A program made the position numbers and the translations under genes. A stretch of 64,000 nt of DNA from Octopus vulgaris (lineage: Eukaryota): contig OX597815.1 in the NCBI GenBank assembly GCA_951406725.2, forward strand, positions 85,064,001-85,128,000, given 5' to 3'. Every line of letters begins with the position of its first letter. Position 1 is the stretch's first letter. Below, piece by piece: positions 14,700 to 58,590 of the stretch. Under the pieces are notes generated by a model. The model saw only the letters and a program-made list of their open reading frames with translations. It searched no databases and was not told where the DNA came from.

Positions 14700-15345
14700 T
14701 CACTGAAGCTTCCATCTACTCTTGATTGATGAAGCACAAAAAGTGAGCACAGAAAGTGATTGCAGAAAGTGAGCCATGGTTCAGAATGAGAAGGAAATTT
14801 TTTTTTTCATTTTTTTTTTGCAATCTTAATATGCATAAGCAGTGGTTATGCAAGAGCCAGCTTCTGGAACATGTCGTCAAACAGGGGTGTTTCGAACACA
14901 GGTAACACTCTGCATCTGGTGGAGTTATGAGTTCATTACAGATGATCAATCCATCAATGCCAACTTGTGCTCCAAACAGCAGCTGCATTTTTTTTTTGCA
15001 ATCTTAATATGCATAAGCAGTGGTTATGCAAGAGCCAGCTTCTGGAACATGTCGTCAAACAGGGGTGTTTCGAACACAGGTAACACTCTGCATCTGGTGG
15101 AGTTATGAGTTCATTACAGATGATCAATCCATCAATGCCAACTTGTGCTCCAAACAGCAGCTGCAGATGATGCCATTGCAAAGCAAAATACCTGGTATTG
15201 GTTGACAGAAAGCAAATACTTCAGTAAGACAATGCAAGATCTCATACTGCTTGAACAACCTGGAGTAAACTCTAAGAACTAGAAGGAATCAAAATGATGC
15301 CACACCTAGCATATATCCTGCACCAAGCTCCCTCAGATTATTACT
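14700..15345 (+). pseudogene. Mariner transposase relic containing a perfect 178-bp tandem duplication (about 14810-15166)
   Basis: VTLCIWW..YEF...SINANL..QQL resembles the mariner catalytic region; identical ORF starts at 14842 and 15020. Confidence 0.6.
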
Positions 15346-30944: not shown

Positions 30945-32005
30945 TTTGGCATGGTTTCTATGGCTTGATACCTTTCATAATTCCAACCACTCCAAAAGTG
31001 TAATGGGTGCTTTTACATTCCACCAGCATGGGTGCCATTTGCTTGACACCAGTAACTATCACGACTATGATTTTACTTGGCTTGATGAGTCTTCTTCTCA
31101 AGCTTGGCATAATGCCAAAGGTCTTGATCATTCATCATTGCCTCTGTAGGGCCGAAAACACTCAAAAGGTGCTTTTCACATGCCACCAGCATCAGCCACC
31201 TTGCCTCCATGAGGCCTAACACTCAAAAGGTGTTTTTTACGTGCCTCCAGCATGGTTGCCAGTTACATGACACCAGCATCAGCCATGACCACGATTTCAC
31301 TTGGCTTGACGTGTCTTCTCAAGCACAGCATATCACCAAAGGTTTTGGTCACTAGTCTTTGCCTCTGTGAAGCTCAATGTTTGAAGATCGTGCTTCACCA
31401 CCTCGTCCCATGTCTTCCTGGGTCTACCTCTACCATAGATTCCCTCCACAGCTGGAGATTGGCACTTCTTTACACAGGTGTACTTGTACATATGCATTAC
31501 ATGACTATACCAACACAGTTGTTTCTCTTGTACACCACATCTGATGCCTCTTATGCCTAACTTTTCTCTCAAGATGCTTACACTGTCATACATGTACACT
31601 GACATTGCACATCCAATGAAATATACTGCCTTCATTTCTTTCAAGCCTACACATATCCTCAGCTGTCACAACCTGTTTTGCTGCCATGTAGCATAGCTGT
31701 TTACACACAAGCATCATACAATGAGCCTTTCTTTCTGAAGGAGAGGCCCTTTGTTGCCAACAGAGGTAGGAACTCTCTGAACTTTGCCCTACATATTCTT
31801 ATTTTCACAGCTATGCTCTCGGAGCATTCACCTCCACTACTAGCTTGGTCACCCAGATAACAGAAGCTACCTACTACCTCTCGCTTACCCCACTTGCAGT
31901 TGATGGAGTTTATTTTCTGTACATTTTTGGTGTTTATTGTACCTGTGCATATTCCACAAACAAAAACTATTTTCCCTGTTAGCCTTCTTCTGATATTGCT
32001 GTCCC
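30945..32005 (-). pseudogene. 5'-truncated RTE LINE (C-terminal ORF part and 3' UTR)
   Basis: EVVGSFCYLGDQ..AKFREFLPLL..KGSLYDACV..LCWYSHVMHM..GRGRPRKTW. Confidence 0.85.
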
Positions 32006-33105
32006 TCTTATATATATATATATAAGATATTACGATTCCAGTGAATAAGGCACTTATATGGCAAGGCACCAGGTTGGGTCAAAATTAAAATGCATACACA
32101 TCAATTATAGACAAATAACAACATTGGTACAGAAGTACTAGAAGAAGGATATTCAGGTTATGTATGCAATTAACTGAACCCAACTTAGTACACCATCAGC
32201 CCTTGGGCTAATTCTGAAATGCACATTTTATCAAATATACAGTTCATAATATACTTCAGAACATGTGAGGGGCAGGTTCTGAGAGAGGTGAATCATAAAT
32301 AAATAACAAATGATGGATAGGTATCAATTCATTACGGCTGTTTCCAATTTTTTAATTGATTAATGAGTATATTATATCATTATAAAAAAATTATTTTCTT
32401 CATATGAATACACAAATTATACATTTAAGGACATTTAAAAAATTTCAAATCCTTGGCATGTGCATATTCAGTGATTCCTTGATCGATGCTGGTCACAAAA
32501 TGAGTTTGCTAAATCAAAATAAACCAAATTCAAGTGGTTTTGTAGGAGGGGGACATCTCTACACATATGTTGGAGAGGTATATTTAAGATTTATAGTCTA
32601 GAAGGAGGTTAGTTAGCAAGGTAGGTGGAGAGAGAAAAGAGACAGCCAAATGTCTCCTCTCCACAATTAAGAAAGAGGTACTTCCTTTTATCTTAAAATA
32701 CAATTTAACTTGAGATATGGGATCAAAGGCAAAAGATAAGATTCACAATGATTTATAAATACATCTATTTAAGGTTCCCTTTATGCCAGCTTTATTACTA
32801 AGAGTATGTTTGATGGAGGCATAAATACCAGACTTCGGCTATAGGGTGGAGAGGGAGAAAGAGGGAAATGAGGATGGTATTCATCTTGTTAACAGATAGG
32901 TAAGGAAGTATACCATTAATAGCATACCATAACACCATTGTATGAAAGCAAATGGATAATAGTAAGAGAGAGATTGAAATGGATAAAACAATTCATGTAG
33001 AAAACAGGGGTTATAATAAAAAAAAGTGGGTAGTCATAATGAAGGAATTTGGATACTAATAAAAATGGAACTGATAAAAGTTTCATATAAATCATTAAAA
33101 TTAGT

Positions 33106-35327: not shown

Positions 35328-36807
35328 TTGAAAGACTGCTGAAAACTTGTGGATACCTAAGGTTACAGGTAGTAACCCACTATCCATGCAATCCTTACCA
35401 AGAATAAGAGCGAACCTGAGACAAATCAGAATAATAATAAAATAATCATAGAATGGTAGGGCAATATAATACACAAATTCCATTGATAAGTAAAATACAG
35501 GAGGAGTGAAATATGAAAAAATTAATTTCTTATAGATTATAAAAGATCAGACATAGAGAGGGAACTGTATATACAAAATGTATTTAAAAACAGATACTAA
35601 TGCCTTTACTTGGTTACTCAGTTGACCTGGAAAAGCTATTGGCGCAATCACCTGTTGTCTTTTAAACTTAGACATAAGGCTAATAGCAAGTCATTATCCA
35701 CGAAGGTTTGGGAAATCAAATTTAACATAATATGAAATATAATTTGTAGAGCTCAACCATACTTCAACAGTTGATATGGGTGTTGCATGGAGCTGTATGA
35801 AATATTAAAATATCAAAATATAGAAATACGGATAATTTAATGAATAATAAATTAAATCTTAGGGTTTCATGTGTTCATAAAATCGCCCATATATTTAAAT
35901 ATTTTAAAAGCATTATTTAGTCAACGAGCCCCTGTTTTTCTATGACAGCATCTGTACCTTCTCTTCGCTTCATAGCTGAGCCTGTGTAATAGAATTGCCA
36001 TTGTGATTATATAGTGATATCTCCTGACCCACTAGCCCTTATAGACCTCCTGTTTAGCTAATTATGCTTTGATTAGCTTGATATACCTTCACAATTTTTG
36101 TGTGGTTTGGGCAATTAATACTAGAACCTGTTTATTATGTAACACATAACCTGACCCAATTGGCATGTTACTATACCTTTATATATTATTTTTACTTATA
36201 ATTACTTTTATTATAATTATGCTTATGATTACTTTAGTGTTGATGTCTTATCACACCTATAGATTGCTAACTACACCTGTATTAACTAAGCTTGAATTAT
36301 AACTAAATGTGCACTCTTATCAGCTGCTAGGTGTCCAACATGGATCATGTTTATCTTCTCTTTGCTTTTTATAAACTATGAAACTTTATGATCTCTCTTG
36401 AAATATATCGTTAATATTACTGTAGAATGATAATAATACTTTACGGAGATGTACTTCCATAGCAAGTGATTTGATCTGAGATCGTGTGCTTAAACTTAAA
36501 TGTTGAAGTGAATCGAACGGCTTTTGTGTGTTTCTTAAATGGCTTACAAACACCTTCTACGCTGCAATTGGATAATAATACCATTTACTTTGTTTGTTAC
36601 TCCTTACTAAAATTAAAGACTACATTTATAATCACATTTTTTAAAATCCATTTTATATATACAGTTCCCTCTCTATGCCTAATTATTTATAATCTATAAC
36701 AAAAAATTAATTTTTTCATATTTCACTCATCCCATATATTACTTATCTATGGGGTTTGTGTATTACCATATTTTAACATGTATAAGGAACCCCCTAATTT
36801 TTAGGGC

Positions 36808-37478
36808 TTTAGTCATTGCCTTTGTGAGGCTCAAAGTTCAAAGATCATGCTTCACCACCTCATTCCATGTCTTCCTGGGTCTACCTCTACCATAGGTTCC
36901 CTCCACAGTTAGAGATTGGCACTTCTTCACACAGCTGTACTTGTCCATATGCATGACATGACCATACCAGTGCAGTGGTCTCTCTTGCACACCACATTTG
37001 ATGCCTCTTATGCTTAACTTTTCTCTCAAGGTTCTTACACTCTGTCATGCATGCACGCTGACATTGCATATCCAGAAAAACATACTGGCTTTATTTCTTT
37101 CAAGCCTACACATGTCCTTGGCTGTCACAACCCATGTTTCACTGCCATGCAACATAGCTGCTAACACACAGGCAGCAGATAATCTGCCTCTCACCCTGAG
37201 AGAGAGTCTCTTTGTTTCCAGCAGGGGTAGGAGCTCTTTGAACTTTGCCCATCCTATTCTTGTTCTCATAGCTACGCGCTCTCGTGGCATCCACCTCCAC
37301 TTAATTTGGTCACCTAGATAATGGAAGCTATTTACTACTGCTTGCTTGTTCCTGTGGCAGTTGATAGAGTCTATTTTCTACCCATTTTCAATGTTTATCG
37401 TACCTGTGCAGCTTCCACATACAAAAGCTAGTTTCCCTGATAACCTTCCCCTGATATTGCTGCACCTATTATGTGTCC
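36808..37478 (-). pseudogene. RTE LINE fragment
   Basis: RIGWAKFKELLPLL..MLHGSETW..WYGHVMHM..GRGRPRKTW. Confidence 0.85.
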
Positions 37479-37708
37479 ATATATATATATATATAATAAT
37501 AATAAATATTAGGGAATAAATCCAAACTTACAGGGAAAAATCAGATTTAGGATTGAATCCAATTTTATAGTAAAATATTATATTATATTAAATTAGAGAC
37601 AAAACCACTATTAGGCAAATCAAACAATGAAAGACTTAAGCCAATACATATGATTAATTTATATTATTTAAATATGTAACAAAATTATCAAAAAATATAA
37701 TTAATATC

Positions 37709-37771
37709 CCACTACGATCGTTTCCTGCCTGCTATCTTCAAATTTTTGAGTTGCAGTCATTCATCAGGTGG
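37709..37771 (-). ncRNA. Type-I hammerhead motif (mirror copy)
   Basis: Reverse complement of 37838-37900 with two substitutions in loop II. Confidence 0.7.
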
Positions 37772-37837
37772 TTTAAATATTTTTCTTGGCGAGGTTTAAA
37801 CAATGAACAATGAACCTCGCCAAGAAAAATATTTAAA

Positions 37838-37900
37838 CCACCTGATGAATGACTGCGACTCAAAAATTTGAAGACAGCAGGCAGGAAACGATCGTAGTGG
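37838..37900 (+). ncRNA. Type-I hammerhead motif
   Basis: CCAC-CTGATGA-ATGACTGC...GCAGGCAG-GAAA-CGATCG-TA-GTGG. Confidence 0.7.
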
Positions 37901-38031
37901 GATATTAATTATATTTTTTGATAATTTTGTTACATATTTAAATAATATAAATTAATCATATGTATTGGCTTAAGTCTTTCATTGTTTGATTTGCCTAATA
38001 GTGGTTTTGTCTCTAATTTAATATAATATAT

Positions 38032-38387
38032 ATGGGCAAAGTTCAAAGAGCTCCTACCCCTGCTGGAAACAAAGAGACTCTCTCTCAGGGTGAGAGGCAG
38101 ATTATCTGCTGCCTGTGTGTTAGCAGCTATGTTGCATGGCAGTGAAACATGGGTTGTGACAGCCAAGGACATGTGTAGGCTTGAAAGAAATGAAGCCAGT
38201 ATGTTTTTCTGGATATGCAATGTCAGCGTGCATGCATGACAGAGTGTAAGAACCTTGAGAGAAAAGTTAAGCATAAGAGGCATCAAATGTGGTGTGCAAG
38301 AGAGACCACTGCACTGGTATGGTCATGTCATGCATATGGACAAGTACAGCTGTGTGAAGAAGTGCCAATCTCTAACTGTGGAGGGAA

Positions 38388-38392
<5 letters not shown>
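38032..38392 (+). repeat. Inverted duplicate of 36892-37252 (RTE fragment)
   Basis: Near-identical reverse complement; the ORFs at 36998 and 37930 differ at one residue (ILALF vs ILASF). Confidence 0.9.
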
Positions 38393-38430
<38 letters not shown>

Positions 38431-38448
38431 ATATTCTATTTATATATA

Positions 38449-38853
38449 TTGGGTCATCCCATAAATAATGCAGGCTTTTTCATACTTCTTTTATTTTTCA
38501 GAATTAAGACAAACAAAGTTCTTTTATAATCTAAAATATACTCTCCTTCATTTTCTACAATACTCTTCCATCTGGTAGACTTGCAAGGCCCCTCTTCCAA
38601 AATTCACTTGTCCATAATGAAAAATACTCCTCCAGTGCTGTTCTGACCTTTTTTTTTTTACTTGTTTCAGTCATTTGACTGCGGCCGTGCTGGAGCACTA
38701 CCTTTAGTCGACCAAATCGATCCCAGGACTTATTCTTTGTAAGCCTAGTACTTACTCTATCAGTCTCTTTTGCCAAACCGCTAAGTTACGGAGACGCAAG
38801 CACACCAGCATCGGTTGTCAAGCGATGTTGTGGGGACAAACACACACACACAA

Positions 38854-49811: not shown

Positions 49812-50255
49812 AATGAGATAGGGGTTGTAAATTCAACCCTCCATGGGATAACATATATCCAACATACTGCTAGAGAGGTACCCAACAAAACTAATACATA
49901 AATGTTAAAAATTGCGATGCAATTAATTCATCTACTGTATTATGTGGGCAAGGGTAAAATTATTACCGTAAATTAATAATACAAAATGAGAAAATGGAGA
50001 AACATACCTAAATCAATCATCAACCATCAGATAATACCCAATCAATACTTTATCAAACCATTACACAACAGCAAAGATATTATACATAATATATTACAAA
50101 TATAACCAGACATAGAAATAATGTCTAGTTATATTTGTAATATATTATGTATAATATCTTTGCTGTTGTGTAATGGTTTAATAAAGTATTGATTGGGTAT
50201 TATCTGATGGTTGATGATTGATTTAGGTATGTTTCTCCATTTTCTCATTTTGTAT
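49806..50255. repeat. Fold-back insertion (arms 49979-50113 and 50121-50255) between TA tracts, probable PLE stub
   Basis: 135-bp inverted arms with a 7-nt loop and about 2 mismatches. Confidence 0.8.
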
Positions 50256-50270
50256 ATATATATATATATA

Positions 50271-53200
50271 TCTTTGAACTTTAATTCATCCGTATCTCTA
50301 TTTATTATTATTATTTATTAATTATTATTATTCTGATCCCCCTAGTCGCCACTCTGTTTACTATTTCAGCCTCGCCTCGTTTTGCATATTCTGTATAATT
50401 CACTAGTTATCGTTATAGATATTTTAAGATCTATCTCCCTTATAGAAATTGGCTGCCGATTCTTCGCGGGGTTTTTCTCTTCCCTTCTCTCCCCCTCTTG
50501 TTACATTGTCGTCTGTCTGGACTCCTCTCTTCCTACCACCCGCCATGGCTATGCATACTTAAGCTAGTAAACTGCCTCATTCTTGATTCCGAATTCCTTT
50601 TGCCAAGTCTGTCCGTAAACGAAGTGATCTCAAGATAAGAAATCTTTGAACTTTAATTCATCCGTATCTCTATTTATTATTATTATTTATTAATTATTAT
50701 TATTCTGATCCCCCTAGTCGCCACTCTGTTTACTATTTCAGCCTCGCCTCGTTTTGCATATTCTGTATAATTCACTAGTTATCGTTATAGATATTTTAAG
50801 ATCTATCTCCCTTATAGAAATTGGCTGCCGATTCTTCGCGGGGTTTTTCTCTTCCCTTCTCTCCCCCTCTTGTTACATTGTCGTCTGTCTGGACTCCTCT
50901 CTTCCTACCACCCGCCATGGCTATGCATACTTAAGCTAGTAAACTGCCTCATTCTTGATTCCGAATTCCTTTTGCCAAGTCTGTCCGTAAACGAAGTGAT
51001 CTCAAGATAAGAAATCTTTGAACTTTAATTCATCCGTATCTCTATTTATTATTATTATTTATTAATTATTATTATTCTGATCCCCCTAGTCGCCACTCTG
51101 TTTACTATTTCAGCCTCGCCTCGTTTTGCATATTCTGTATAATTCACTAGTTATCGTTATAGATATTTTAAGATCTATCTCCCTTATAGAAATTGGCTGC
51201 CGATTCTTCGCGGGGTTTTTCTCTTCCCTTCTCTCCCCCTCTTGTTACATTGTCGTCTGTCTGGACTCCTCTCTTCCTACCACCCGCCATGGCTATGCAT
51301 ACTTAAGCTAGTAAACTGCCTCATTCTTGATTCCGAATTCCTTTTGCCAAGTCTGTCCGTAAACGAAGTGATCTCAAGATAAGAAATCTTTGAACTTTAA
51401 TTCATCCGTATCTCTATTTATTATTATTATTTATTAATTATTATTATTCTGATCCCCCTAGTCGCCACTCTGTTTACTATTTCAGCCTCGCCTCGTTTTG
51501 CATATTCTGTATAATTCACTAGTTATCGTTATAGATATTTTAAGATCTATCTCCCTTATAGAAATTGGCTGCCGATTCTTCGCGGGGTTTTTCTCTTCCC
51601 TTCTCTCCCCCTCTTGTTACATTGTCGTCTGTCTGGACTCCTCTCTTCCTACCACCCGCCATGGCTATGCATACTTAAGCTAGTAAACTGCCTCATTCTT
51701 GATTCCGAATTCCTTTTGCCAAGTCTGTCCGTAAACGAAGTGATCTCAAGATAAGAAATCTTTGAACTTTAATTCATCCGTATCTCTATTTATTATTATT
51801 ATTTATTAATTATTATTATTCTGATCCCCCTAGTCGCCACTCTGTTTACTATTTCAGCCTCGCCTCGTTTTGCATATTCTGTATAATTCACTAGTTATCG
51901 TTATAGATATTTTAAGATCTATCTCCCTTATAGAAATTGGCTGCCGATTCTTCGCGGGGTTTTTCTCTTCCCTTCTCTCCCCCTCTTGTTACATTGTCGT
52001 CTGTCTGGACTCCTCTCTTCCTACCACCCGCCATGGCTATGCATACTTAAGCTAGTAAACTGCCTCATTCTTGATTCCGAATTCCTTTTGCCAAGTCTGT
52101 CCGTAAACGAAGTGATCTCAAGATAAGAAATCTTTGAACTTTAATTCATCCGTATCTCTATTTATTATTATTATTTATTAATTATTATTATTCTGATCCC
52201 CCTAGTCGCCACTCTGTTTACTATTTCAGCCTCGCCTCGTTTTGCATATTCTGTATAATTCACTAGTTATCGTTATAGATATTTTAAGATCTATCTCCCT
52301 TATAGAAATTGGCTGCCGATTCTTCGCGGGGTTTTTCTCTTCCCTTCTCTCCCCCTCTTGTTACATTGTCGTCTGTCTGGACTCCTCTCTTCCTACCACC
52401 CGCCATGGCTATGCATACTTAAGCTAGTAAACTGCCTCATTCTTGATTCCGAATTCCTTTTGCCAAGTCTGTCCGTAAACGAAGTGATCTCAAGATAAGA
52501 AATCTTTGATCTCAATTATTTTATAATCCCCTACTTTTTTAATCTTTGAACTTTAATTCTGATCCGTATCTCTCTATTTATTATTATTATTTATTAATTA
52601 TTATTATTATTCTGATCCCCCTAGTCGCCACTCTGTTTACTATTTCAGCCTCGCCTCGTTTTGCATATTCTGTATAATTCACTAGTTATCGTTATAGATA
52701 TTTTAAGATCTATCTCCCTTATAGAAATTGGCTGCCGATTCTTCGCGGGGTTTTTCTCTTCCCTTCTCTCCCCCTCTTGTTACATTGTCGTCTGTCTGGA
52801 CTCCTCTCTTCCTACCACCCGCCATGGCTATGCATACTTAAGCTAGTAAACTGCCTCATTCTTGATTCCGAATTCCTTTTGCCAAGTCTGTCCGTAAACG
52901 AAGTGATCTCAAGATAAGAAATCTTTGAACTTTAATTCATCCGTATCTCTATTTATTATTATTATTTATTAATTATTATTATTCTGATCCCCCTAGTCGC
53001 CACTCTGTTTACTATTTCAGCCTCGCCTCGTTTTGCATATTCTGTATAATTCACTAGTTATCGTTATAGATATTTTAAGATCTATCTCCCTTATAGAAAT
53101 TGGCTGCCGATTCTTCGCGGGGTTTTTCTCTTCCCTTCTCTCCCCCTCTTGTTACATTGTCGTCTGTCTGGACTCCTCTCTTCCTACCACCCGCCATGGC

Positions 53201-56200
53201 TATGCATACTTAAGCTAGTAAACTGCCTCATTCTTGATTCCGAATTCCTTTTGCCAAGTCTGTCCGTAAACGAAGTGATCTCAAGATAAGAAATCTTTGA
53301 ACTTTAATTCATCCGTATCTCTATTTATTATTATTATTTATTAATTATTATTATTCTGATCCCCCTAGTCGCCACTCTGTTTACTATTTCAGCCTCGCCT
53401 CGTTTTGCATATTCTGTATAATTCACTAGTTATCGTTATAGATATTTTAAGATCTATCTCCCTTATAGAAATTGGCTGCCGATTCTTCGCGGGGTTTTTC
53501 TCTTCCCTTCTCTCCCCCTCTTGTTACATTGTCGTCTGTCTGGACTCCTCTCTTCCTACCACCCGCCATGGCTATGCATACTTAAGCTAGTAAACTGCCT
53601 CATTCTTGATTCCGAATTCCTTTTGCCAAGTCTGTCCGTAAACGAAGTGATCTCAAGATAAGAAATCTTTGAACTTTAATTCATCCGTATCTCTATTTAT
53701 TATTTATTAATTATTATTATTCTGATCCCCCTAGTCGCCACTCTGTTTACTATTTCAGCCTCGCCTCGTTTTGCATATTCTGTATAATTCACTAGTTATC
53801 GTTATAGATATTTTAAGATCTATCTCCCTTATAGAAATTGGCTGCCGATTCTTCGCGGGGTTTTTCTCTTCCCTTCTCTCCCCCTCTTGTTACATTGTCG
53901 TCTGTCTGGACTCCTCTCTTCCTACCACCCGCCATGGCTATGCATACTTAAGCTAGTAAACTGCCTCATTCTTGATTCCGAATTCCTTTTGCCAAGTCTG
54001 TCCGTAAACGAAGTGATCTCAAGATAAGAAATCTTTGAACTTTAATTCATCCGTATCTCTATTTATTATTATTATTTATTAATTATTATTATTCTGATCC
54101 CCCTAGTCGCCACTCTGTTTACTATTTCAGCCTCGCCTCGTTTTGCATATTCTGTATAATTCACTAGTTATCGTTATAGATATTTTAAGATCTATCTCCC
54201 TTATAGAAATTGGCTGCCGATTCTTCGCGGGGTTTTTCTCTTCCCTTCTCTCCCCCTCTTGTTACATTGTCGTCTGTCTGGACTCCTCTCTTCCTACCAC
54301 CCGCCATGGCTATGCATACTTAAGCTAGTAAACTGCCTCATTCTTGATTCCGAATTCCTTTTGCCAAGTCTGTCCGTAAACGAAGTGATCTCAAGATAAG
54401 AAATCTTTGAACTTTAATTCATCCGTATCTCTATTTATTATTATTATTTATTAATTATTATTATTCTGATCCCCCTAGTCGCCACTCTGTTTACTATTTC
54501 AGCCTCGCCTCGTTTTGCATATTCTGTATAATTCACTAGTTATCGTTATAGATATTTTAAGATCTATCTCCCTTATAGAAATTGGCTGCCGATTCTTCGC
54601 GGGGTTTTTCTCTTCCTTCTCTCCCCCTCTTGTTACATTGTCGTCTGTCTGGACTCCTCTCTTCCTACCACCCGCCATGGCTATGCATACTTAAGCTAGT
54701 AAACTGCCTCATTCTTGATTCCGAATTCCTTTTGCCAAGTCTGTCCGTAAACGAAGTGATCTCAAGATAAGAAATCTTTGAACTTTAATTCATCCGTATC
54801 TCTATTTATTATTATTATTTATTAATTATTATTATTCTGATCCCCCTAGTCGCCACTCTGTTTACTATTTCAGCCTCGCCTCGTTTTGCATATTCTGTAT
54901 AATTCACTAGTTATCGTTATAGATATTTTAAGATCTATCTCCCTTATAGAAATTGGCTGCCGATTCTTCGCGGGGTTTTTCTCTTCCCTTCTCTCCCCCT
55001 CTTGTTACATTGTCGTCTGTCTGGACTCCTCTCTTCCTACCACCCGCCATGGCTATGCATACTTAAGCTAGTAAACTGCCTCATTCTTGATTCCGAATTC
55101 CTTTTGCCAAGTCTGTCCGTAAACGAAGTGATCTCAAGATAAGAAATCTTTGAACTTTAATTCATCCGTATCTCTATTTATTATTATTATTTATTAATTA
55201 TTATTATTCTGATCCCCCTAGTCGCCACTCTGTTTACTATTTCAGCCTCGCCTCGTTTTGCATATTCTGTATAATTCACTAGTTATCGTTATAGATATTT
55301 TAAGATCTATCTCCCTTATAGAAATTGGCTGCCGATTCTTCGCGGGGTTTTTCTCTTCCCTTCTCTCCCCCTCTTGTTACATTGTCGTCTGTCTGGACTC
55401 CTCTCTTCCTACCACCCGCCATGGCTATGCATACTTAAGCTAGTAAACTGCCTCATTCTTGATTCCGAATTCCTTTTGCCAAGTCTGTCCGTAAACGAAG
55501 TGATCTCAAGATAAGAAATCTTTGAACTTTAATTCATCCGTATCTCTATTTATTATTATTATTTATTAATTATTATTATTCTGATCCCCCTAGTCGCCAC
55601 TCTGTTTACTATTTCAGCCTCGCCTCGTTTTGCATATTCTGTATAATTCACTAGTTATCGTTATAGATATTTTAAGATCTATCTCCCTTATAGAAATTGG
55701 CTGCCGATTCTTCGCGGGGTTTTTCTCTTCCCTTCTCTCCCCCTCTTGTTACATTGTCGTCTGTCTGGACTCCTCTCTTCCTACCACCCGCCATGGCTAT
55801 GCATACTTAAGCTAGTAAACTGCCTCATTCTTGATTCCGAATTCCTTTTGCCAAGTCTGTCCGTAAACGAAGTGATCTCAAGATAAGAAATCTTTGAACT
55901 TTAATTCATCCGTATCTCTATTTATTATTATTATTTATTAATTATTATTATTCTGATCCCCCTAGTCGCCACTCTGTTTACTATTTCAGCCTCGCCTCGT
56001 TTTGCATATTCTGTATAATTCACTAGTTATCGTTATAGATATTTTAAGATCTATCTCCCTTATAGAAATTGGCTGCCGATTCTTCGCGGGGTTTTTCTCT
56101 TCCCTTCTCTCCCCCTCTTGTTACATTGTCGTCTGTCTGGACTCCTCTCTTCCTACCACCCGCCATGGCTATGCATACTTAAGCTAGTAAACTGCCTCAT

Positions 56201-57205
56201 TCTTGATTCCGAATTCCTTTTGCCAAGTCTGTCCGTAAACGAAGTGATCTCAAGATAAGAAATCTTTGAACTTTAATTCATCCGTATCTCTATTTATTAT
56301 TATTATTTATTAATTATTATTATTCTGATCCCCCTAGTCGCCACTCTGTTTACTATTTCAGCCTCGCCTCGTTTTGCATATTCTGTATAATTCACTAGTT
56401 ATCGTTATAGATATTTTAAGATCTATCTCCCTTATAGAAATTGGCTGCCGATTCTTCGCGGGGTTTTTCTCTTCCCTTCTCTCCCCCTCTTGTTACATTG
56501 TCGTCTGTCTGGACTCCTCTCTTCCTACCACCCGCCATGGCTATGCATACTTAAGCTAGTAAACTGCCTCATTCTTGATTCCGAATTCCTTTTGCCAAGT
56601 CTGTCCGTAAACGAAGTGATCTCAAGATAAGAAATCTTTGAACTTTAATTCATCCGTATCTCTATTTATTATTATTATTTATTAATTATTATTATTCTGA
56701 TCCCCCTAGTCGCCACTCTGTTTACTATTTCAGCCTCGCCTCGTTTTGCATATTCTGTATAATTCACTAGTTATCGTTATAGATATTTTAAGATCTATCT
56801 CCCTTATAGAAATTGGCTGCCGATTCTTCGCGGGGTTTTTCTCTTCCCTTCTCTCCCCCTCTTGTTACATTGTCGTCTGTCTGGACTCCTCTCTTCCTAC
56901 CACCCGCCATGGCTATGCATACTTAAGCTAGTAAACTGCCTCATTCTTGATTCCGAATTCCTTTTGCCAAGTCTGTCCGTAAACGAAGTGATCTCAAGAT
57001 AAGAAATCTTTGAACTTTAATTCATCCGTATCTCTATTTATTATTATTATTTATTAATTATTATTATTCTGATCCCCCTAGTCGCCACTCTGTTTACTAT
57101 TTCAGCCTCGCCTCGTTTTGCATATTCTGTATAATTCACTAGTTATCGTTATAGATATTTTAAGATCTATCTCCCTTATAGAAATTGGCTGCCGATTCTT
57201 CGCGG
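50271..57205. repeat. Tandem array of about 18.5 near-identical 372-bp units
   Basis: Identical 61-aa pseudo-ORF spaced by 372 bp; variant spacings of 419, 366 and 371. Confidence 0.98.
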
Positions 57206-58379: not shown

Positions 58380-58473
58380 TATATATATATATATATGTAT
58401 GTGTGTGTAGTGTATTGTTCTGTGATGGTGAGATCAACAAAAAAAGTACTCCATCTGGAGAGAGATAAATATC

Positions 58474-58590
58474 ATTTAATAAACACAATATATGTTTTAT
58501 GTGTTACTATTAGTTTCATGCAATAAAACTAATAGTAGCACATAAAACATATATTGTGGTTATTAAATAATATTTCTCATTTTGTATTAT
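58474..58590. repeat. Short fold-back (about 43-bp arms) plus a tail abutting a TA tract
   Basis: CACAATATATGTTTTATGTG.TACTATTAGTTT / AAACTAATAGTA.CACATAAAACATATATTGTG. Confidence 0.7.

Follow-up and report, generated by a model that had tools for sequence, protein, structure and literature searches.

The question raised by this locus is how a short retroelement insertion came to carry, on one of its sides, an inverted copy of the DNA that lies on its other side. The locus is part of a 64,000-nt stretch of Octopus vulgaris DNA, on contig C2 of a 2.8-Gb genome, the whole stretch being referred to here as the window. A first-pass annotation had read it as one continuous act of synthesis, i.e., as a fold-back copy that overran the element, jumped template, and then went on into neighbouring sequence.

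Two nested pairs of arms

Upon self-comparison of the window, two nested pairs of inverted arms are seen. The outer pair (36892-37252 and 38032-38392) is 361 nt long with a single mismatch, a T at 37092 versus 38192, and the inner pair (37579-37796 and 37813-38030) is 218 nt long with two mismatches, at 37734 and 37752, its arms being separated by a loop of 16 nt. Between the two pairs is a stretch of 326 nt (37253-37578) that is not mirrored. The annotated course of the right arm, which was to mirror the element's stub, skip about 326 bp, mirror 361 bp of flank, and end in a TA tract (from 38390), is found exactly where it had been placed, and the approximately three mismatches then counted are exactly three (1/361 and 2/218). 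The unmirrored stretch is itself composite, however: it is made up of 227 nt of flank, the left TA tract, and the element's tail, and the skip is the sum of two separate junctions.

Reading from the left, the flank of the insertion is an old internal fragment of a LINE-type repeat (36810..37479, minus strand; 81.6% identical to window positions 31353-32024). This fragment is 83-86% identical to eight genomic copies, several of which extend past both of its ends, and its reading frame is broken. We take it to be 'RTE-like', a provisional label suggested by the likeness of its translation; a Pfam search with it returned no informative match. Within it lies the template of the copied flank (36892..37252, plus strand), of which 360/361 nt are complementary to 38032-38392. 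The right flank of the insertion does not continue this repeat. Next comes the left part of the TA target tract, grading into a short TAA run (37480..37499, unstranded), with TA repeats found at this place in 85/93 family copies. The element then begins, on the minus strand, with a one-sided tail of approximately 75 nt between two fixed ends (37500..37574), which is present on one arm only in family copies and which, in the coding relatives L163-L165, sits just before the start of the ORF. It is followed by the tailed arm of the terminal repeat, or pLTR (37575..37808, minus strand), which by alignment to a longer family copy, B, is an internally deleted short form, and which includes a predicted type I hammerhead motif (37713..37767, minus strand), the mirror of 37842-37896.

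At the central junction 7 nt, AATGAAC, are present as a direct duplication, first at 37802-37808 and again at 37809-37815 (plus strand), which bears out the short repeat annotated in the loop; its last three nucleotides, AAC, are microhomology to the right arm. That arm (37813..38030, plus strand) is inverted and tail-less, ends at the family's fixed second end, and has its own type I hammerhead motif (37842..37896, plus strand), recognized by pattern as core, stem II, GAUC loop, and GUA site, with cleavage predicted only. Beyond it is a remnant of the right TA tract (38031..38033, plus strand), matching the TA-joined form seen with most inverted arms, then the inverted 361-nt copy of left-flank DNA (38032..38392, minus strand), and then the right TA tract (38390..38449, unstranded; pure TA to 38428), which has 3 nt of microhomology with the end of the copy. 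An AT microhomology had been annotated at the inner junction and an AT is indeed present there, but it is common to the flank and the TA remnant rather than to the flank and the left arm; a literal jump from 37579 requires one extra base or a slip.

At every one of the three arm-arm mismatches it is the right-hand copy that has the common family base (27/28 and 44/48 arms scored, index arms included, and 8/8 copies of the flank repeat), which counts against a read artefact.

Several other features of the window may be mentioned. Just left of the locus are imperfect inverted repeats (35467-35590 and 36639-36765; 86%, approximately 1.05 kb apart) which likely are the ends of an old DNA transposon. 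A near-perfect 372-bp tandem array of 18.5 units (50270-57205) is directly preceded by a 277-bp palindrome (49979-50255), with the two together looking like a tandem (retrozyme-like) two-armed insertion. Palindromes at 814-1076 (264 nt, 92%) and 58464-58578 (115 nt, 89%) are possibly stubs of other PLE (Penelope-like element) families. A 178-bp tandem duplication at 14808-15165 is exact and hence very recent.

The element family and its inverted arms

A 33-mer from the element's end has 788 matches in the genome versus none for a control 33-mer, and the element (37500-37808) is 94-100% identical to 40 scored family matches; as judged from sequence, that is, it is a member of a young family of at least 788 copies. 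Element positions 1-281 align with positions 1-288 of copy B, and 275-309 with B positions 982-1016. The longer, non-coding B form in turn runs directly into coding sequence for RT/GIY-YIG in L150 and L151. Compared with L128, the index element is a mini form which lacks approximately 700 nt at a short, shared, AT-rich stretch. Element position 303-310 is where many arms, tailed as well as tail-less, come to an end; it may be the 5' terminus of the RNA or a strong RT stop.

Relatives with open frames of 695-841 aa have the first 150-176 nt of the repeat beside the ORF, at 86-92% identity. In L164, element positions 1-176 flank a 695-aa open frame on both sides, i.e., as pLTR-ORF-pLTR, with a tail-less inverted arm in addition, and in L163 an 841-aa frame begins 55 nt past the tail. 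Together with L150/L151 these loci display, in autonomous form, the architecture of EN+ PLEs, which is pLTRs around a single RT plus GIY-YIG ORF. The inverted 5'-truncated copy with one-sided tail that is characteristic of PLEs is seen as a tail-less inverted arm in 73/93 copies. Translations of L162-L165 can be read as including DKT, YRDD, CxCX5C, YIG without CCHH, CxxC, and CxH motifs; of these DKT, CxCX5C, the lack of CCHH, and CxxC with CxH, along with (TA)n insertion, match the description of the Hydra clade in PMC8557442. L163 and L165 read RIKWK where the Hydra RWK motif is described, which is similar, not identical. Pfam and PDB searches with the coding relatives gave no informative match, and the Hydra assignment thus rests on motifs plus structure. 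The family would seem in these terms to be a (TA)n-targeting PLE of Hydra type, with its domains named from motifs, and the annotated identity of the element as Penelope-like is upheld by its pLTR-ORF-pLTR relatives, their motifs, and the inverted tail-less arms.

An asparagine-rich, AAT-coded stretch lies between RT and endonuclease in L150-L151 and L162-L165, and resembles the N-rich inserts of rotifer Penelopes (PMC3846280, as far as its account of these goes). There are, in addition, many Hydra-type copies with open frames of 820-860 aa and 82-88% identity to the query, such that this sister family probably is young and may be active.

The hammerhead which the annotation had seen in the stub stands as a motif, visible on inspection and recovered by pattern matching (core CUGAUGA at 37842, GAAAC at 37885, and a palindromic GAUC loop), and the same pattern of core, stems, and palindromic loop occurs in 78 arms of the family copies fetched. 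It does not stand as a database match or as a stable fold: Rfam returned no hammerhead at gathering threshold or at E<=10, with its miRNA matches at the locus due to the hairpin only, and the fold of the monomer was no better than that of shuffled sequences (z -1.2). The putative hammerhead is of the minimal type I kind with palindromic loop, which fits the minimal PLE hammerheads outlined in PMC4209133.

How the two arms of such copies arise was approached through a survey of the first 100 of the 788 listed tail-pattern matches, unselected for arm length and on contigs C1 and C2 only, of which 97 were analysed and four dropped as segmental duplicates, leaving 93 copies. To these were added 30 best matches. 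Flanks of 1.5-3.5 kb were inspected, and templates farther away thus would be missed. Removed before counting were the index locus, L052 (same place as L020), and L063, L064, L077, and L105 (duplicated segments). L076 and L077 are 29 kb apart within a duplicated segment that carries a cysteine-rich ORF of 187-188 aa, which may resemble interleukin-17.

Tail-less inverted arms have their outer end at element position 76-81 in 64/73 cases, with the index arm ending at 80. TA repeats adjoin the tail-less end in 60/73, as they do the tailed end of most copies (85 of the 93). The commonest form of the tail-less end is joined to TA (50/85), with an exact copy of the tailed arm seen in 6/85; the outer end of the index arm follows the TA-joined form, a one-base difference and so a weak extra sign. 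As to length (n=73), the inverted arm exceeds the tailed one by at least 20 nt in 23 copies, is shorter in 18, and about equal in 32, and in 5/73 the tailed arm stops before position 76, meaning that the two arms share nothing. A fold-back copy cannot exceed its template, nor can the tail be copied from a tail-less strand, and copies that are longer or non-overlapping therefore need two RNA-templated strands. What fold-back would demand, which is that the inverted arm hold nothing absent from the first arm, fails family-wide but is true of the index copy. The index right arm is wholly within the left arm and is thus compatible with fold-back; taken alone, this copy and the 32 equal-armed ones fit both fold-back and priming at two sites. 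The central microhomology of the index locus recurs in exact mirror form, with arm roles swapped, in L013 and L096, and short central duplications like its 7-nt one are present in L082 and L136.

Such an arm-length survey is a simple genomic test of self-priming versus two-site priming, and its outcome favours the latter as the general route, with family arms likely being two RNA-primed cDNAs, one per target end. The annotated notion that the 218-nt arm is a hairpin-primed copy which overran the element and jumped accordingly loses its footing, as that arm's outer end is the fixed second end of the family, and 23/73 inverted arms are longer than any such copy could be.

Copied flanking DNA

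The 361-nt copy is 99.7% identical to the neighbouring fragment versus 83.6-88.3% to nine other copies of the repeat, which also upholds the annotated view of a recent event. A 25-mer across the junction has a single genomic match when up to 1 mismatch is allowed, and no other pLTR-flank chimera is found among the best 40 of 6804 candidates. High local identity along with a unique junction points to a local DNA copy, neither a new retrotransposition nor a mobile chimera, and the possibility that the chimeric right arm is an independent element of many loci, raised earlier as grounds for rejection, is thereby set aside. The copy lies within what ordinarily is the right TA tract, was taken from 230-590 nt away, and has microhomology at both of its joins, of 2 nt and 3 nt respectively. 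Near-identical nearby DNA with short microhomology at both joins is what templated insertions look like, and the 361-nt piece is likely a separate templated insertion within the right TA tract.

Flank copies are found in 3/121 other independent insertions (29 best matches plus 93 pattern matches, one common to both), in every case in the central junction: a 174-nt inverted copy of left flank in L021 (98.3%), a 162-nt direct copy of right flank in L022 (96.3%), and a 114-nt direct copy of right flank in L098 (97.4%). As two of the three belong to the best-match set, the unbiased rate is 1/93. At the outer junction, as with the index locus, flank copies number 0/121, and 0/25 among further pattern matches with a short TA run there (a few of which overlap the earlier set and one of which is a tailed arm); the flank-patch step of the model below therefore draws on the index locus alone. 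Among 302 sides of unrelated TA tracts one inverted local copy was seen, which looks like a dispersed short repeat, in a test of inverted copies only that has little power against a rate of ~1%. That flank copying is tied to insertion is thus supported for the central junction and inferred for the outer, index type. The annotation's proposed survey of other PLE inversions for captured flanks hence was productive for the central junction and empty for the outer one, and its suggestion that PLE insertion can create inverted duplications of host DNA gains from those three loci while losing the hairpin-primed route by which this was to happen.

Other candidates were rejected by eye. L008 seems to be a small element bounded by terminal inverted repeats, and L027 a further tandem element with two arms; L053, L088, the left side of L098, and L119 seem to be other palindromic or PLE-like insertions, and L099 a later short repeat. 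In L048, L112, L121, L122, and L126, plus other inverted pairs, there is no contact with the element end. To the right of the element in L152 (a wider view of L027), a second two-armed structure, of unit ~430 nt, begins at the same TA tract and probably is another PLE-mobilised repeat.

The reading which we consider probable, short of being assured, is of a short two-armed Hydra-type PLE insertion in a TA repeat, made of two reverse transcripts from two cut ends, to which a 361-nt repair patch of left-flank sequence was added in the right TA tract during or soon after insertion. The endonuclease would cut both strands in (TA)n, as family flanks suggest; two-strand cutting has been shown in vitro for another PLE (PMC11167929, in the part describing this). 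Priming would then take place at element position 1 from the left end and at 76-80 from the right, giving rise to the tailed and tail-less arms whose ends are observed. Both cDNAs would stop near position 297-309 and join at the observed junction, at 3 nt of microhomology following a 7-nt slip. The right junction presumably is still open or is re-broken two TA units past the arm, and the 218-bp palindrome between TA tracts could itself be the cause of a later break. A free top-strand end would pair through 2 nt with the left flank at 37251-37252, extend by 361 nt, and rejoin the right TA tract by 3 nt, the two junctions being seen in the sequence and the direction, timing, and polymerase being supplied by the model. 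Synthesis thus would run outward from the right arm on the exposed strand of the left flank, with folding of the two arms together perhaps having carried the free end near that flank, and in this respect something of the annotated fold-back picture is retained. Host end-joining (microhomology-mediated) synthesis is the preferred candidate for this step, though the element's own RT is possible.

Were the whole instead a single run, the first cDNA would fold at the loop, copy 218 nt, jump 326 nt, copy 361 nt of flank, and join the right TA tract. The geometry does suit one continuous strand, a 3-nt stem and small loop are present at the centre, from L021 it is clear that the end of a cDNA is able to turn back onto left-flank DNA, and self-priming has been proposed for PLE inverted repeats (PMC3846280, in its model section). 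The jump, however, coincides with the family's fixed end and bears the TA-joined form, and a strand at position 80 could continue through the tail or prime on the TA tract 80 nt away, rather than on 2 nt at 37252; with its inability to yield longer inverted arms (23/73) or mirror junctions weakening it at the family level, this account seems unlikely. Distinctly unlikely, too, is that two independent events are superimposed, i.e., that break repair patched the inverted copy into the TA tract first, with the element later landing at the edge of the left TA run. TA tracts are break-prone, and in some family copies the right TA run is very short. The outer arms, furthermore, are no more diverged than the inner (1/361 versus 2/218; Fisher p 0.56), though these counts are too small to order the events. 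Two rare, young events at one tract nevertheless would be needed, and the unrelated TA-tract sides include no clear flank copy in 302, versus the 3/121 of family insertions.

A third variant has the flank copied first and on the other strand, with 36892-37252 being read by the broken end on the right, or else by a replicated sister end that had been resected to 37252, and the new end then priming the second reverse transcript. The flank's AT thereby would prime the second cDNA directly at the fixed site, with no re-breaking, and for L1 there are described cases of sister ends that fold back and are bridged by cDNA (PMC11702581). Priming outside of a TA-type tract is rare in the family, however, the template strand would not be that exposed by resection, and sister fusion requires a second break and join, all of which makes this order of events improbable. 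Least credible is an assembly or chimeric-read artefact: palindromes are troublesome for assemblers (PMC8557442, in its remarks on assembly), but the right arm has the family base at each of the three arm mismatches, the junctions coincide with biological boundaries, and related composite junctions exist at other loci. Over 37813-38800, samples of ~3% from each of three raw read runs gave 0, 12, and 0 aligned reads, none of them at a junction, and one contig set gave pieces of ~60 nt. Over 36760-37475, four contig sets were compared; exact 126-nt pieces of the old left-flank repeat copy are found in X2 and X3, and among the listed pieces and 23 of the 36 loose ends none reaches a junction. In X3 an 82-nt piece that matches exactly covers 37092 and carries the left-arm base, with no second form seen at a depth of ~6, and X3 may be without the flank copy (contigs cannot show absence); the base at 37092 perhaps is an older polymorphism, and if so the copy possibly was read from the other chromosome.

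Two reverse transcripts plus a flank patch remains the preferred account of this locus. A broader claim is offered tentatively, as one which we doubt more than we credit: that PLE integration leaves free ends which would copy host DNA up to several hundred bases off in ~2-3% of insertions, the element's RT switching from RNA to flanking DNA. If true, then Hydra-type elements would steadily supply this genome with small duplications, direct as well as inverted, and an open intermediate with two ends would be recorded in their junctions.

Known systems

The footprint that PLEs usually leave is one of inverted pLTRs with a tail (PMC8557442, as there summarized). With the Hydra clade of EN+ PLEs as characterized in that source (Craig et al. 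2021, PMC8557442), the octopus family has in common a GIY-YIG-type C-terminal domain without CCHH, the CxCX5C linker, DKT, CxxC, and CxH, as well as a pLTR hammerhead, (TA)n targets, an inverted 5'-truncated copy, and a one-sided tail. It differs in having KWK rather than the RWK described for Hydra, a tail of ~75 nt versus the 30-40 nt given for PLEs, and flank copies, of which there is no mention for Hydra-clade PLEs in the portions consulted of PMC8557442. Host DNA captured between pLTRs, as portrayed in PMC3846280, is an arrangement unlike the flank copies here. Literature searches on Penelope elements found no report of inverted flank duplication or templated insertion.

The Poseidon element PAc, studied in vitro (Frangieh et al. 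2024, PMC11167929), likewise cuts and extends both target strands, and has two RT start sites whose spacing is that of the tail, with which the two-site reading of family arms agrees. It belongs to another clade, however, and in the sections seen of that study the joining of inverted arms is not worked out nor is flank copying reported. The PLE self-priming model (Arkhipova et al. 2013, PMC3846280) is matched insofar as palindromes or short stems are present at the inversion point in many octopus copies. It differs in that octopus arm lengths need two independent RNA-templated strands in at least 23/73 copies, counts which run against self-priming, as that model presents it, as the general route.

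The closest likeness for the flank copy is with L1. In L1 foldback inversion (Nam et al. 2023, PMC10191854), as reported for the events detailed there, an inverted flank duplication similarly is produced by extra DNA synthesis as insertion is resolved. Those events number 3 + 1 (0.3% + 0.1%), once together with twin priming. They are somatic, human, and 52-220 bp versus 361 here, and they are located upstream of the target site, whereas the octopus copy derives from the flank beside the tailed (3') end and lies at the junction opposite. L1 templated insertions (22 cases in 10.1101/2024.08.27.596794; 3 plus 3 in PMC11702581, as described in each) also copy nearby genomic DNA during integration, typically over <250 bp and from no more than 15 bp away (10.1101/2024.08.27.596794), versus octopus templates ~50-730 nt from the element; the 361-nt copy exceeds those typical L1 cases in both length and distance. 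By itself the locus amounts to one accident of repair within repetitive DNA and has no function that is evident; what gives it value is the clue it offers to how Penelope elements integrate. The family's flank copies show an intermediate with free 3' ends able to read nearby host DNA, as is known for L1, and most of the locus is accounted for by a normal twin-armed PLE stub together with a rare templated insertion, the latter of a kind known from that element.
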